Assembly: GCA_963813715.1 (NCBI GenBank)
Contig: CAWFAK010000005.1
Span: forward strand, 1,461,110-1,525,109
DNA length: 64,000 nt
DNA from: an uncultured Planctomycetaceae bacterium
GTDB taxonomy: Bacteria > Planctomycetota > Planctomycetia > Planctomycetales > Planctomycetaceae
Reading direction: 5' to 3'
Positions within the stretch are counted from its first letter, which is position 1; every line of letters begins with the position of its first letter. The translations under genes and the position numbers were made by a program. This document shows, piece by piece, positions 22,600 through 27,693 of the stretch. The notes under the pieces are model-generated. The model was not told the origin of the DNA. It searched no databases and saw nothing but the letters and a program-made list of their open reading frames with translations.

Positions 22600-24303
22600 A
22601 TGTCCGAGCGAAATGGGAATGGGCACATGCCCGAAAGTGGGGCGGCGGTTGGGGATCGGGTTAATGGCGAGACGCCGGCGGTCAGGCCCGATTTGACCGA
22701 TGCCCAGCGGGCGGAAGCTGTTCTGGAATGGGATCGCCGCTTCGAGGAGGCGCTGGTCGAGGTGCGGGCCAATTACGATCCGCAGGCTGAGGCAGCCAAG
22801 CTGGAGGGCCAGCCGGAGCCTGTGCGCGCCGGCCTCAATCGGCTGCGGGAGCTGGTCGTGCCGCCGAAGAAAGAGTTTCGGCTCTTTTCGGCCGCCCAGC
22901 TCAACTCGGGGCAGTACGAAACTCGCTATCTGGTCCGCGGCATTCTGGCGGCCGGGCAACCGGGAGGCATTTTCGGCGCCTTTAAGACGCTCAAAACGTC
23001 GCTGGCCGCCGACTTATTGATCTCGATCGCCAGCGGCACTCCCTTCCTCGGCCGCTTTCCCGTGCCGCAGCCGGGCCGCGTCCTCTTTCTCTCCGGCGAA
23101 TCGGGGTTGCCCGCGCTGCAGTCGATCGCCCGGCGGATCTGTGCCGAGCGCGGCCTGTCGCTGGAAAAACTCGACAATTTTGTCCTTTCGCCGGACTTGC
23201 CGCGGCTGGACCTGAGGTCCGACGTCGCGGCGCTCAAAAAACTCATCGAAGCCGAGCGGCCCGTCTGCGTGGTCATCGATCCGGCTTATCTCACGCTCGG
23301 CGGTGACAACGGCCGCAACCTGTTCGCGATGGGCTCGCTGTTGCGGCCGCTGGCCGAACTCTGCGAATCGACGGGCTGCACCGTGCTCGTCGTGCATCAC
23401 TGCAAACGCTCGCAAAAAGCGGGCGACCCGGCCACGCTCGACGACATCGCCTGGAGCGGCTTCGCCGAGTTCTCGGCCCAGTGGCTCCTGGTGTCCCGTC
23501 GCCGCCCCTTCGATCCGGCCACCGGGCACCACGAGCTGTGGCTGGGCGCGGGCAGCCGCGTCGGCAACCACGGCCTGTGGGAACTCGACGTCGACGAAGG
23601 CCGGCCGCACGAATTCTCGCTCGACGTTCGGCCCCACGGCCCGGTCGATGGTCCGCTCGACGATTCTCTTGCGGGCGAACACCGCGTCTGGAAAACGACC
23701 CTTCGCCCGGTGGCCGCGCTGCAACGGCAACTCGACGCGCAGTTCGTCGCGGCCAGCGAAGACCGCCGCCTCCGCCGCCGGGCGGCCACGTTCGACCGCC
23801 AAAAGCAACGCGTGCTCGAATTCCTCTCCGCCCACCCCAACGGCTGCAACGCCACCCAAATCCGCGAAGTGCTCGGCTTCAACGGCAACCGAATGAAACG
23901 GCTCCTGGACATGCTCTGCGACGACCGGCTCGCGCGGACCGAGGAAATCTACCACGACCGGCGGAAGGAAATTCTGTACCACCGCGTGCAGGTCATGGAT
24001 CTATCCGCCACCGCCATCCAATCCAACCGCGTCAGCCCAGTCGATGAAATGAAGTACGAGGTCCGGTCCGGACACTTTGTCGATCGACCGGCAGCGGGAC
24101 CGGACGACCGACGCCCACCCACGCCGCTGAACGCCGTCTCGCCGGTCAACGCGAGTTCCCCCCTTCGCCCACCGATTACCCGCGGCGAACAGCAACCGGT
24201 TCCCCAAAACGCCCTAACCGCACCGGGTGCAGGGGCGTTGCCCCTGCCCCTGCCGGGTCCGGACACTTTTGTGGGAATGGGGACCGACGCGGACCGGACG
24301 TAG
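22600..24303 (+). CDS. AAA_25 / RepA-like P-loop ATPase (helicase-like) with probable C-terminal winged HTH
   Basis: GGIFGAFKTLKT Walker A variant, VLFLSGE, VVIDP Walker B, LVVHH; C-terminal NATQIREVLGFNGNRMKRLL. Confidence 0.8.
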   Translation: MSERNGNGHMPESGAAVGDRVNGETPAVRPDLTDAQRAEAVLEWDRRFEEALVEVRANYDPQAEAAKLEGQPEPVRAGLNRLRELVVPPKKEFRLFSAAQLNSGQYETRYLVRGILAAGQPGGIFGAFKTLKTSLAADLLISIASGTPFLGRFPVPQPGRVLFLSGESGLPALQSIARRICAERGLSLEKLDNFVLSPDLPRLDLRSDVAALKKLIEAERPVCVVIDPAYLTLGGDNGRNLFAMGSLLRPLAELCESTGCTVLVVHHCKRSQKAGDPATLDDIAWSGFAEFSAQWLLVSRRRPFDPATGHHELWLGAGSRVGNHGLWELDVDEGRPHEFSLDVRPHGPVDGPLDDSLAGEHRVWKTTLRPVAALQRQLDAQFVAASEDRRLRRRAATFDRQKQRVLEFLSAHPNGCNATQIREVLGFNGNRMKRLLDMLCDDRLARTEEIYHDRRKEILYHRVQVMDLSATAIQSNRVSPVDEMKYEVRSGHFVDRPAAGPDDRRPPTPLNAVSPVNASSPLRPPITRGEQQPVPQNALTAPGAGALPLPLPGPDTFVGMGTDADRT

Positions 24304-24337
24304 GTTTGCGGATCCGGAATCGTTGATGTCAGGCATT

Positions 24338-24426
24338 GGGTGGCACTGGCGGCTTGTCCGCCAGTGTCTTCTGATGGGCAGCGCGACGGACCCAAGACAC
24401 TGGCGGACAAGCCGCCAGTGCCACCC
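24338..24426. repeat. Inverted doublet of REP-like family A (BIME-like)
   Basis: GGGTGGCACTGGCGGCTTGTCCGCCAGTG followed by its reverse complement. Confidence 0.88.
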
Positions 24427-24486
24427 ACGACCACGTCTTGGCCAAAAGAAAATCCGGGGCTTCCGCAAAGCAGAGCGCCCGGCCAT

Positions 24487-24760
24487 CTATGAGAAGGGTA
24501 GCGTCAAGGGTTGGTTTTTGCGTTTGAAGTGGTGATCTGGGCGATGCGGTACGCTCAACCATCTATTCGGGATCACCAACGGTCTGGAACAGGTCCGTCG
24601 ATGTCGCCAGGAAGCCGACTTTCGAGAGACGCCCCATTCACCCTTCGAAGGTCGCTCTTGTCATGGAACGCCTTCATGGCCGGGGGCGGGGTCGTCTGTG
24701 GGTCGTCGCAGCGCTTTGGATCGATTCTTTGGTGGGTGCTCTCCTGCCCAAGCTCGGGAT
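24487..24760 (-). ncRNA. Candidate bridge/seek RNA region of the IS110 element
   Basis: About 275 nt non-coding region downstream of the transposase, holding short matches to both target halves and both donor-junction halves. Confidence 0.6.
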
Positions 24761-25780
24761 TCAAGTGGGTTGCTGGCTGACTGAGTAGGGTTGGCCCGTC
24801 TTCAAGATCGCTGTCATCAGGCACAACAACCGGCGGGCCACGGCGACGATCGCCTTCTTGGCACGCACGCGCAACTTCAATCGTTCATAAATCCGACGCC
24901 AACGTAACGAGTGCTGAACCAGCCGCCAGGCGGCTTCGACCAGCGTCGAGCGCAGCAGCGTCGAACCGTTCTTCTCCAGGTGCAGCTCCCGACTCTTGCC
25001 CGCACTCTCGCGTTGACCCGGTGAGAGCCCCGCGTAAGCGACGACCCGCTTTTGCGAACCGAAGCGATCAATGTCTGCCAGCTCGGCCAGCACAACTTCG
25101 GTGGTCACGAAGCCCACTCCGGGGATCGTCCGCAACAGCGTCCGCGCTTCCTGCTCGCGAAGCGGCGCTGCCTCGGCGAACTCCTTCAGCCGGGCGTTGA
25201 CGGCCAGCAGCTGACGCCTCCCGAAGTGCAACTCTTCGACCATTTGATCCACGGCGAACCGATCCGCTCCCGAGAGGGGCACTTGGGCGAGATACGCCAA
25301 CCCCTCCACGGTGAACAGACTGGGGCGATCCGCGTTGTAGTCGCAGAGAATGCGGCGCAGACGGTTCTTGACGGAGGTCAATCGCCGTTGAACGCCGCCC
25401 CGCTGACGCACCAGTCGTCGATGCTCATGCTGCCGCGGAGTCGCGCGGTAAGACGTCGGAATCATGTCCAGAGCCAGGAACTCCGCGAGGATTTGCGCGT
25501 CGAGCCGATCGCTTTTACGCGTGCTCTCGGCAATCACACGCAGCTTCTTCGGGTGGGCCAACAACACGCGATGGGCCACGGGCTCGATCAATCGCACGAA
25601 CCATTCGTAGCTGGCGGTCGCTTCCACGACAGCCTCGAACTCCCCGAGCCTCTCGAAAAATGCGAGGATGGTCCGCTCTTCGCCACAACGCACGGTCCGA
25701 CGCTCCAAAACCCGCCGCGATTGGTCGACGACGCAAATCGTGATAGTCTGCTTGTGTAGGTCGCAGCCGGCAAATTTCAT
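24761..25780 (-). CDS. IS110 family transposase (DEDD recombinase)
   Basis: GCDLHK, VEAT and KSDRLDA RuvC-like residues; TIPGVG; AYAGLSPGQRESAGK serine wedge; AIVAVARRL. Confidence 0.95.
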   Translation of the reverse strand: MKFAGCDLHKQTITICVVDQSRRVLERRTVRCGEERTILAFFERLGEFEAVVEATASYEWFVRLIEPVAHRVLLAHPKKLRVIAESTRKSDRLDAQILAEFLALDMIPTSYRATPRQHEHRRLVRQRGGVQRRLTSVKNRLRRILCDYNADRPSLFTVEGLAYLAQVPLSGADRFAVDQMVEELHFGRRQLLAVNARLKEFAEAAPLREQEARTLLRTIPGVGFVTTEVVLAELADIDRFGSQKRVVAYAGLSPGQRESAGKSRELHLEKNGSTLLRSTLVEAAWRLVQHSLRWRRIYERLKLRVRAKKAIVAVARRLLCLMTAILKTGQPYSVSQQPT

Positions 25781-25957
25781 GGCGGTGTCCTTTTGTGGAA
25801 ACGGTTTGCAACAAACTCCGTTTACCACGTTCAAGCACAACCACCAACCGGCTCGGCCTACCTCTTACCGCTCCTCATAGCTTCACCCGTCGCGTAGTCC
25901 TGTAGTTTCGTAGGACAAGCTGGCAGCTTGTCCTGCGTGCGGGCACGGGACCAGCGG

Positions 25958-27693
25958 ATGGTCCGGTCGCGGCCGCCGGGAAAGACGCCGCAAATGGCCG
26001 GGTTCCAGGCTCGTCTCCCCAAGAATCGGGTTTCCGGCTACCCTTCCGCCACGATGCGATCCGACCAGCGATATGTGGTTCGGGAGGCGATCCGTCGCCA
26101 GCAGGGGGAACCGGTGGGAGAACCTGTCCGGGAACCGCTGCGCCGCGACGCGCGCGAATACGGGCGATACGAGGACGAGCAGCCGCCCCGCCGCGAAGTC
26201 CGGGAGTACCAGCAGGGCGAATATCGCGAACCGGCTCCCCCGTATCGCGAGCCAGCTCCGGGCTACCCCGAACCGGCTCCAGCCTATCGCGAACCGCCGG
26301 CCGGTTATCGCGAGCCCCCAGTCACTTACCGCGAGGTGGGCGCCACTTATCGTGAGGCGGGGCCGGTTTATGCTCCCCGTCCGGCACCCCCCTATTCCGA
26401 GCGCCTGCCTGACGAGTCGTATCGCCGCCTCCGCCGCCTCCGCCGCCCCCTCCCCGTCCGGCGCGGCCCCTGTATTCGGTGCGCGAGGCGGACCCTTACG
26501 GTCGCCGCGAGATCCGCTCATCCTACCTGGCTCAGCCCCAGGAGGCGGGATCCGCATATGGACCCGGCGAGTCGGCGCGTCGTCCAGTTCGCGAGCGGAC
26601 GGCACGTCGCGAGGAGTGGCAAGCTGCCGAGCAGAACGAAAACGAAGAAGACTCGACCGATCAGCCCACCGCTCCGGCCTGGTTTGCCGTCTCGCGAGCG
26701 ACCGCCTTCTTTGTCGGTTGCGTGACCCTGTTGGCCCTGCTGGGCGAACTGCGGTTTCCCAACTTCTCAGCCGGCGACTGGTGGATCGATCTCGCGCCCT
26801 TGCCGAAGGCGGCGTCCCGCGGCGTGCTCGGCCTGTCGGCCGCATTTCTGATTGTGTTTGCGTTCTTCCCGCGGGCCAATGGATTCATTCGCCGTTGTGG
26901 CGGGCTTTGCACGATGGGCCTGCTGGGAGCGGCCGGTTGGAGCGTTTACCGGTATTACCACGTCGCTCACGCGGGTCAAAGCTTCCACGATTTGCCGGTC
27001 CCCTTCGCCCTGCATGTGGTCGCCCTGCTCTTCGTCGTGTTGCCCGGGCAGCTGACCGGCTGGTGGGAGCGAACGAACTTTTTCAAGGACGCTTTCGTTG
27101 GGATGGTGACGCTGGCCACCTGCGTGGTCAGTTTTCCGCTGGCGAACTTCGCCTGCGTCGGCCTGCTGGATGATCGAGCCGGCATTGATCCGGCTCAAGG
27201 TGCTGCCGCCGTGGTCGTCGCCGGGCGGGCAGACGCCGAGAAAATCGCCGGCGAGAAACCGGACCGGAACCCGTTGCAGGCGGCGTGCCAGCTCTATCGC
27301 GAGGGGCAGGTCAAACAGCTGTTGCTCGTTCCCCGGTCGGGCGAGACAGGCGGCGCCGAGGAAACGCTGCAGTCCCTGCGACGGGCCGTTTTAGACCAGG
27401 GAATTCCCGAGGCCGATATCCTGTCGCCTCCAGGTGCTCCGGCCGCTTCCGCAGATTCTCGTGCGATGCTGGGCGAGACGGCCAAATTTCTCGACGCACA
27501 GAAGTTGCCGCATGTGCTGATCGTCGCCCGGTTTTTCGAGGTGCCCCGGATTAAGCTCAGCCTCCAGCGGGCCGGGCTCGACGTGCATGCCGCACCGATT
27601 CGCGAGGACGTGCGGACCCCTCAGATGCGGCCCGTGCTGGCCCGCGAGGGGATGGCCTTCTGGCTGTGTTACCTTCAGCCGGTGTTAATGTAA
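25958..27693 (+). CDS. Membrane protein with N-terminal Pro/Tyr/Arg repeats and C-terminal YdcF/DUF218-like domain; frameshift around 26420-26480
   Basis: About 5 TMs, then QGIPEADIL...LIVARFFEVPRIKL...LARE motifs; start uncertain. Confidence 0.6.
26222..26368 (+). repeat. Seven degenerate 21-nt coding tandem repeats (YREPxxx)
   Basis: YREPAPP YREPAPG YPEPAPA YREPPAG YREPPVT YREVGAT YREAGPV. Confidence 0.85.

Follow-up and report, generated by a model that had tools for sequence, protein, structure and literature searches.

The 64,000-nt stretch of DNA under study (the window; contig CAWFAK010000005.1, positions 1,461,110 to 1,525,109 of the forward strand, assembly GCA_963813715.1, from an uncultured Planctomycetaceae bacterium) carries on its minus strand an IS110-family insertion sequence of the IS1111 type, made up of a transposase gene and a long non-coding region 3' of that gene. 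A first-pass annotation had proposed that this region encodes a bridge RNA (also called a seek RNA), and had read four short strings in it as guides: CCCCGGCCA (24685-24677) and GGGTG (24643-24639) for the two halves of the target, and ATAGATG (24566-24560) and CTTCA (24529-24525) for the two halves of the donor. All four strings are indeed present at these positions of the minus strand (coordinates here and below are those of the window). After comparing the element with its genomic copies and with its relatives, we consider it very likely that the 3' non-coding region encodes a bridge/seek RNA that guides the recombinase and has both a target loop and a donor loop. The parts of the element are as follows.

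24484..25883, minus strand: whole insertion sequence, 1,400 bp, counting from where AAGCTATGAG begins and including the TG that follows the right end
24761..25780, minus strand: gene for the 339-aa transposase/recombinase (DEDD RuvC-like and Tnp domains)
25874..25880, minus strand: left subterminal inverted repeat CTATGAG, 3 nt inside the end, conserved in relatives
24487..24493, minus strand: right subterminal inverted repeat CTCATAG, 1 nt inside the end, from reading of the sequence
25884..25888, minus strand: left target half and core, GGG-TG, present in all eight copies
24477..24483, minus strand: right target half GCCGGGC, the start of a repeat-like hairpin; GCCGGGG in four other copies

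A DNA search of the element's own genome returned eight copies, 96-100% identical. When these were aligned together with their flanks, similarity was found to begin at AAGCTATGAG (25883) and to stop at CTCATAGATG (24484). The left junction reads ...GGG-TG|AAGCTATGAG, in which a second TG, at 25885-25884, precedes the left end, and the right junction reads ...CTCATAGA-TG|GCCGGG(G)C, with its TG at 24485-24484. The ends of the eight copies give GGG-TG-GCCGGGG as the target and CATAGA-TG-AAGCTAT as the circle junction, and the target and junction reconstructed in the first-pass annotation were therefore correct. Every copy has GGG-TG on its left and TG-GC... on its right, with TG alone common to both sides, so that insertion is orientation-specific and produces no duplication beyond the core. 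The subterminal repeats are perfect over 7 bp, the lower limit of the IS1111 range (7-17 bp), and the non-coding DNA amounts to 274 nt downstream of the gene (24760-24487) versus 103 nt upstream (25883-25781). Such features, subterminal repeats and a long downstream non-coding region, define the IS1111 group (PMC11187229; PMC11208160).

The protein matches the Pfam families PF01548 (DEDD_Tnp_IS110; 3.4e-15) and PF02371 (Transposase_20; 5.7e-23), and its 339 aa fall inside the 330-350 aa range of IS1111 transposases. Residues D7, E53, D91, D94 and S259 are invariant in 18 relatives and align with those of ISCro4; the catalytic serine motif reads GLSPGQRESA, with S-A rather than S-G. The closest solved proteins are the ISCro4 and IS621 recombinases, to which similarity is weak (E about 1e-13) with the catalytic residues conserved. 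The transposase reading frame is intact in four of the eight copies, while all eight retain the four RNA blocks. The other four (cp4 to cp7, loci L004-L007) carry a premature stop, at codon 238 in three and at codon 198 in one, and their guide blocks are unchanged; these copies could be mobilised in trans by the intact ones.

Relatives were collected in two sets. A phylum-wide transposase search of 401 genomes (E <= 1e-60) matched four, namely the element's own genome and three of 20 other members of the family, and a search at the level of the family matched 21 of 398 genomes. Set 1 consists of 21 elements from these family genomes, with 48-100% protein identity (n = 19 for right flanks and 20 for left flanks). 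A search of genome contigs with a single protein yielded only seven loci. For the hold-out, metagenome contigs were scanned with an alignment of 18 transposases, which gave 463 relatives, of which 80 were fetched and 65 were usable. Among the fetched loci, 12 had no anchor (nine had no ATAGA block in the contig and three had no left-guide anchor), and L085, L107 and L144 were removed because the anchor fell at the wrong place. Flank comparisons in the hold-out covered up to 55 elements (n = 55 for right flanks and 52 for left flanks).

[quoted passage not shown]

We propose that the RNA encoded by the 3' non-coding region spans 24697-24554 of the minus strand, about 145 nt. Its first module would be a target-binding internal loop between two helices, P1 and P2.

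24688..24697, minus strand: P1 5' strand (AGACGACCCC), outer helix of the target loop, from RNAalifold
24677..24685, minus strand: right target guide CCCCGGCCA (first string of the first-pass annotation), between P1 and P2, by flank covariation
24647..24675, minus strand: P2 hairpin (GAAGGCG ... CGACCTTC), inner helix of the target loop, by compensatory changes
24639..24643, minus strand: left target guide GGGTG (second string), by flank covariation
24627..24635, minus strand: P1 3' strand (GGGGCGTCT), from RNAalifold and pairing counts

RNAalifold, run on 19 sequences, predicted P1 and the start of P2 only, and the donor part of the structure was named by hand afterwards. In the named structure, P1 is paired in 98.8% of cases, with six of its nine pairs altered on both sides, and P2 is paired in 79.5% of cells, with five of seven pairs altered on both sides. 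Taken as a whole, the named structure has 86.2% of its cells paired, compared with at most 50.7% when the partners are slid, and 13 of its 25 pairs are altered on both sides, a level of covariation reached by none of 500 shuffles. The sense strand is favoured because the G-U pairs in P1 and P5 (the outer helix of the donor loop, below) would not pair on the other strand.

The internal loop that P1 and P2 enclose has CCCCGGCCA on one side and GGGTG on the other; the first-pass annotation had anticipated an internal loop for this pair, and the spacing of the two also agrees with the 30-35 nt it gave. CCCCGGCCA is complementary to the top strand of TG plus GCCGGGG. Across the relatives, both sides of the loop covary with the flanks. 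The mean longest run of pairs between the right target guide and the right flank was 6.58 with the element's own flank versus 3.35 with those of others in set 1, and 7.87 versus 2.77 in the hold-out; in neither set was a value as high reached in 20000 permutations. At least eight contiguous pairs with the own right flank are formed by 9 of the 19 elements of set 1 and by 39 of the 55 in the hold-out, where the loop matches more than 40 different right-flank sequences at one fixed place. Four elements of set 1 serve as examples.

G560: 5' side of the loop CCCCAGCCA; own core and right flank TGGCTGGGG
G118: 5' side of the loop GGCGTGCCA; own core and right flank TGGCACGCC
G496: 5' side of the loop TCGGGCTTA; own core and right flank TAAGCCCGA
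G734: 5' side of the loop CCGGGGCCA; own core and right flank TGGCCCCGG

GGGTG reads in the same sense as the left flank and core, which makes the bottom strand its partner. It too follows the element's own flank (5.7 self versus 4.17 non-self, n = 20; 5.48 versus 3.24, n = 52; 0 of 20000 permutations as high in each), and it becomes GGCCG beside the flank GGC-CG in two elements with a CG core. Comparison of this kind matters for strings so short. Among 5000 dinucleotide shuffles of the 274-nt region, CCCCGGCCA occurred in 0.66%, ATAGATG in 0.64%, GGGTG in 11.7% and CTTCA in 24%, and all four together occurred in none. Because of these frequencies, CCCCGGCCA and ATAGATG are beyond chance in the single sequence, whereas GGGTG and CTTCA alone are not. 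The first-pass annotation had itself warned that its two 5-nt matches might be chance; the warning was justified for the sequence taken alone, but GGGTG has since gained the backing of the left flanks.

Could the internal copies of end and flank sequence instead be sites that act at the level of DNA, such as repeats bound by the protein or remnants of recombination with the target repeat, with no RNA involved? The internal ATAGATG does repeat the terminal CATAGATG, and the transcript is a prediction from sequence. However, the compensatory changes in P1, P2 and P4 (the inner helix of the donor loop), together with the strand-specific G-U pairs, point to a folded RNA of the sense strand, remnants would not explain more than 40 different right flanks matched at one fixed place of a loop, and the family is RNA-guided by experiment (PMC11187229; PMC11208160). 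We find this explanation scarcely credible, and continue with a guide RNA.

In L047, L056 and L070 the guide is CCCCAGCCA while the element is located in TGGCCGGGG, which places A opposite C; L048, located in TGGCTGGGG, matches the guide CCCCAGCCA perfectly. This suggests that a mismatch is tolerated at that position of the loop. L055 (genome G519) and L093 lack the first 35 codons and the left end, and the right flank does not fit the own target guide (four pairs); this copy is probably truncated or rearranged.

The probable donor-binding loop and the left end

The second module of the RNA would be a donor-binding loop, located between helix P5 on the outside and P4, capped by P3, on the inside. 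We regard this loop as likely and helix P5 as plausible.

24622..24626, minus strand: P5 5' strand (CTCGA), proposed outer helix of the donor loop, can pair with TTGAG
24611..24615, minus strand: proposed right donor guide GCTTC, by left-end covariation, in place of CTTCA
24604..24608, minus strand: P4 5' strand (GGCGA, C bulged), inner helix of the donor loop, by self versus non-self duplex energy
24574..24603, minus strand: P3, variable hairpin capping P4, a hairpin in single-sequence folds
24569..24572, minus strand: P4 3' strand (TCCC), by duplex energy
24560..24566, minus strand: left donor guide ATAGATG (third string of the first-pass annotation), sense of right end plus core
24554..24558, minus strand: P5 3' strand (TTGAG), by pairing counts
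24525..24529, minus strand: CTTCA (fourth string), unsupported as a guide; in a spacer, with no left-end covariation
24502..24507, minus strand: TTGACG, a -35-like hexamer, 16 nt before the terminal TG

ATAGATG is identical to the right end plus core and falls in the best-conserved block of the non-coding region, GATCCCGAATAGATGGTTGAGCG. It is invariant wherever the end is CATAGA-TG, and becomes ATAGACG in the two elements whose end is CATAGA-CG, so that it covaries at the core position; otherwise it varies little because the element ends are conserved. Together with the two target guides, this bears out the earlier proposal that the region carries guides for both target strands and for the right end.

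The left end is a different matter. GCTTC is complementary to the core G plus the left-end AAGC and stands at a fixed place, just 5' of a conserved xTGGCGAC. The bases at this position match the element's own left end better than those of others (4.15 versus 3.40 matches of 6 in set 1, n = 20; 3.83 versus 3.44 of 6 in the hold-out, n = 52), with no value as high in 20000 permutations of either set. Changes of the left end are followed at three positions in the two data sets: at position 3, over both sets, G stands opposite C in 15 elements and opposite U in 2, while A stands opposite U in 41, opposite C in 2 and opposite A in 1, and at position 2, C faces G in four of four.

GCTTC and ATAGATG flank P4 (GG(C)GA with TCCC), which is formed in all 21 elements of set 1 in seven sequence versions, with a duplex energy of -4.22 for self versus -2.63 for non-self pairs (0 of 20000 permutations as low). 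The length and sequence of P3 change from relative to relative, and one relative has no P3. Pairs 1-4 of P5 are standard in 70-84 of 85 sequences. Since P5 shows almost no compensatory change, the donor loop is rated no higher than likely.

In the first-pass annotation all four strings were guides, with CTTCA reading the left end and the donor pair opposite in order to the target pair. CTTCA is complementary to TG plus AAG and lies 30 nt after ATAGATG, and chance in the single sequence cannot by itself separate it (24% of shuffles) from GCTTC (22%). The comparison between relatives can. The stretch that holds CTTCA is A/C-rich, ranges from 48 to 243 nt and does not align between relatives, and its longest complement of the own left end is no better than that of other left ends (3.74 versus 3.66 in set 1, 6850 of 20000 permutations as high; 3.88 versus 3.88 in the hold-out, 11576 of 20000 as high). 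In this copy CTTCAA could, by eye, simply pair with TTGAG. We therefore consider a guide role for CTTCA very improbable. The first-pass annotation was right on three of its four strings. With GCTTC in its place the two donor guides are 44 nt apart, not 30-35, and the opposite order claimed for the donor guides falls, because it depended on the assignment of CTTCA: in both loops the guide for the right half is 5' and that for the left half 3'.

As for the spacer itself, between the RNA and TTGAC (24508-24553), it is A/C-rich and G-poor, and grows from about 50 nt to about 200-240 nt in L041, L056, L057, L059, L061 and L062. Two further helices were considered and set aside. An outer helix P0 (CGAC/GTCG in this copy) proved, on a check by eye, to be unconserved in relatives, and for a stem of TTGAG with CTTCAA, some relatives have CTCAA or CTCAG downstream, but the partner is inconsistent.

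A second question is whether the RNA reads the donor at all. It could be a seek RNA for the target alone, in which the loop between P1 and P2 picks the target, the protein reads the ends through the subterminal repeats, and the conservation of ATAGATG and GCTTC has another cause, RNA processing or protein binding for instance. For ISEc11, an 82-nt RNA with target matches only is reported to have sufficed, with end binding left open (PMC11187229). Moreover, ATAGATG barely varies and so offers little covariation, GCTTC pairs imperfectly and over only 4-5 nt, and P5 lacks convincing compensatory changes. Against this stand the conservation of GATCCCGAATAGATGGTTGAGCG, the best-conserved block of the region; the change of ATAGATG with the core to CG; the way in which the GCTTC position follows the left end; and the covariation of P4. 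Predicted IS1111 bridge RNAs are also described as containing donor-binding nucleotides (Durrant et al., PMC11208160). We judge a target-only RNA to be unlikely, and prefer an RNA with both loops.

Weight of the evidence, expression and surroundings

Several results weigh against a guide RNA with two loops, or against the tests that led us to it. A fold of the whole 274-nt region was no more stable than shuffles (z = -0.27; 81 of 200 as good); a single-sequence fold of this kind therefore cannot decide which segments lie in loops. RNAalifold on the 19 sequences gave no donor loop, and P5 shows one compensatory change only. A permissive search of 24000-26400 against Rfam 15 found no bridge-RNA family, only matches at chance level (mir-935, E 0.067, on a neighbouring palindrome; the others E above 4). 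Fewer than eight pairs are formed between the right target guide and the own right flank in 10 of 19 elements of set 1 and in 16 of 55 in the hold-out; these shorter runs include cases of a single mismatch, a few elements show almost no match (G137, G444, G519), and two have 2-3 pairs. The right donor guide is short (4-5 nt) and imperfect (on average 4.15 and 3.83 of 6), and eight AACC ends (G711 in set 1 and seven in the hold-out) face U instead of G, a mismatch. With respect to the statistics, some hold-out loci are near-copies of set 1 elements, so that the two sets are not fully independent, the permutation tests ignore relatedness, and the anchors were written after set 1 had been seen. 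A purely phylogenetic explanation is nonetheless unlikely because of the number of different guide-flank pairs.

The RNA is presumed to be made and to be bound by the transposase. Eighteen metatranscriptome runs contain the element, and the contigs of four of these, which belong to four studies, extend across it, with one limit at about 24452-24478 and the other at 25888-25889. Contigs from RNA libraries give neither strand, ends nor level and could derive from DNA, and for these reasons they are weak evidence of expression, which likewise counts against the RNA. No circle joint was found in the contigs of the four runs, in which uncovered stretches are uninformative. A scan of the linear element returned no sigma-70-like promoter site and one terminator-like site, inside the gene. 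In 78 of 79 elements TTGAC stands at the place of the -35-like hexamer above; 66 elements have TTGACA as the full hexamer. TTGAC(A) is probably the -35 box of a promoter that would be completed by the left end when the circle forms.

In the mechanism that we propose, the RNA-loaded recombinase would act on the excised circle, the junction of which is CATAGA-TG-AAGCTAT, and join it to sites that read GGGTG|GCCGGGG within a repeat-like hairpin, presumably by the same recombination chemistry as IS621. Uninterrupted GGGTGGCCGGGG sites number four in the element's own genome, compared with 8.5 expected from composition, and all four lie within the same repeat-like hairpin that flanks six of the eight copies. 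In a related genus, four genomes each contain 12-30 occurrences of the predicted joined site GGGTRRGCCCGAAT and 0 of a reversed control pattern.

The surroundings of the element provide some further observations. Both in the window, at 24453-24483, and in the right flanks of L002-L006, the insertion target forms the first arm of a roughly 35-nt hairpin repeat (GCCGGGGCGCTCCGC nnn GCGGAAGCCCCGG); an inverted second repeat unit lies within about 60 nt in three copies, and no more than four unoccupied sites with the exact 12-mer were found. Just beyond the element, at 24339-24425, is a near-perfect palindrome of 87 nt (GGTGGCACTGGCGGCTTGTCCGCCAGTG...), the arms of which (27-33 nt) match about 50 other places in the genome. 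It is this palindrome that gave the mir-935 match, which is far below the gathering threshold, and it looks like a second repeat family of the repetitive extragenic palindrome (REP) kind. On the plus strand, a 567-aa open reading frame (22600-24303) with an AAA_25 domain (RepA-like ATPase) and a weak match to a MarR-like winged helix ends 180 nt from the element, and may be part of another mobile element.

Guide order, the core and comparison with known systems

CCCCGGCCA, which pairs with the top strand, stands 5' of GGGTG, which pairs with the bottom strand. In IS621, the bottom strand is described as the partner of the left guides and the top strand as that of the right guides (PMC11208158; PMC11208160). 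By this naming, and given GCTTC as the right donor guide (RDG), the order along the RNA would be 5'-RTG...LTG-RDG...LDG-3', with RTG and LTG the right and left target guides and LDG the left donor guide. IS1111-type seek RNAs likewise have the top-strand match 5' of the bottom-strand match, whereas in the IS110-type ISEc21 the bottom-strand (left) match is 5' of the top-strand match (both from Siddiquee et al., PMC11187229).

The core provides a second view of the geometry. The left junction is TG and the right junction TA in five elements (L051, L052, L053, L077 and L080), which occupy five different insertion sites. The second "core" base must therefore differ between donor and target in these elements. 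Their right target guides end in UA, their left donor guide is AUAGAUG, and empty sites with TA exist, from which we infer that the right junction holds the target's base and the left junction the donor's. Cuts in the IS621 structures lie 3' of the core (PMC11208158). IS621 has CT as its core, which remains with the left arms. In the present elements the core base that varies goes with the right arms in all five informative cases, which are related to each other, and this would be the reverse of what the IS621 structures imply, as a mirrored geometry predicts.

We suggest, as a proposition whose chances we put at about even, that in this clade the IS1111-type machine is the IS621-type machine read on the opposite strand. 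Both loops would fit, each with a long guide for the right half placed 5' and a short guide for the left half placed 3', as would a crossover on the other side of the core from that in IS621. IS621's own left guides reportedly stand 5'. A third observation that fits is how little of the donor the RNA reads at the left end (4-5 nt), where the subterminal repeats probably supply the rest. If the proposition is true, what separates the IS1111 group from the IS110 group is that the gene-plus-RNA module is inverted with respect to the polarity of the ends, and not a different mechanism.

As guides for programmable recombination, bridge/seek RNAs form a new class; to our knowledge those studied experimentally come from Proteobacteria. 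The clade described here, from Planctomycetota of soil and aquatic origin, offers a compact candidate, a 339-aa protein and a predicted RNA of about 145 nt. It also comes with a natural series of reprogramming: in more than 70 related elements the right target guides take dozens of sequences, and in 48 of 74 the guide matches the own flank over 8-10 nt. From such a series one can read at which positions the loop accepts change, as well as the natural tolerance of mismatches and G-U pairs. It also leads to a statement, open to testing, about the point of strand crossing with respect to the core in IS1111-type elements. Reading of the sequence alone did find real guides, and the exchange of CTTCA for GCTTC illustrates, in addition, that guide matches of 5 nt require comparative support.

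The system is a bridge/seek RNA of the published kind, from the IS1111 group, and not a new kind of system. RNAs of this type have been described for ISEc11, ISPa11, ISKpn4 and ISPst6 (Siddiquee et al. 2024, PMC11187229), and Durrant et al. 2024 (PMC11208160) predict a bridge RNA in 93% of IS1111 elements. The transposase has the length of TnpEc11 of ISEc11 (339 aa), and the subterminal inverted repeats, the long non-coding region downstream of the gene, matches that overlap at the insertion point and a target in a repeated palindromic sequence are all shared with the IS1111-type systems. The length of about 145 nt fits the long form, 145-170 nt, of IS1111-type RNAs (PMC11187229). A promoter completed at the circle junction, which we propose here, is known for ISEc11 and IS621. 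What differs from the described systems is the host phylum, Planctomycetota, and the core, TG; the donor part also looks like a simple internal loop (P5/P4), compared with the multi-loop mentioned for many IS1111 orthologues. No paper joining Planctomycet*, IS110 and bridge RNA was found in the literature searched.

With IS621 the element shares protein domains and catalytic residues, as well as a target loop in which a long guide of 9 nt is combined with a short one of 4-5 nt. It differs in that the protein similarity is confined to the C-terminal half, and in that the IS621 RNA lies 5' of the gene in the left end, while here it lies 3' of the gene with the right guides 5'. ISPpu9 and ISPpu10 of Pseudomonas putida resemble it in another respect, since they are reported to occur as multiple copies at one position of a repeated extragenic palindrome (PMC12288879; 2026 preprint), in a different host and a different repeat. 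The order of the donor guides may already be drawn in the figures or supplements of the two founding papers. New here are the host phylum, the series of guides that nature has retargeted and the correction made to the donor guide.

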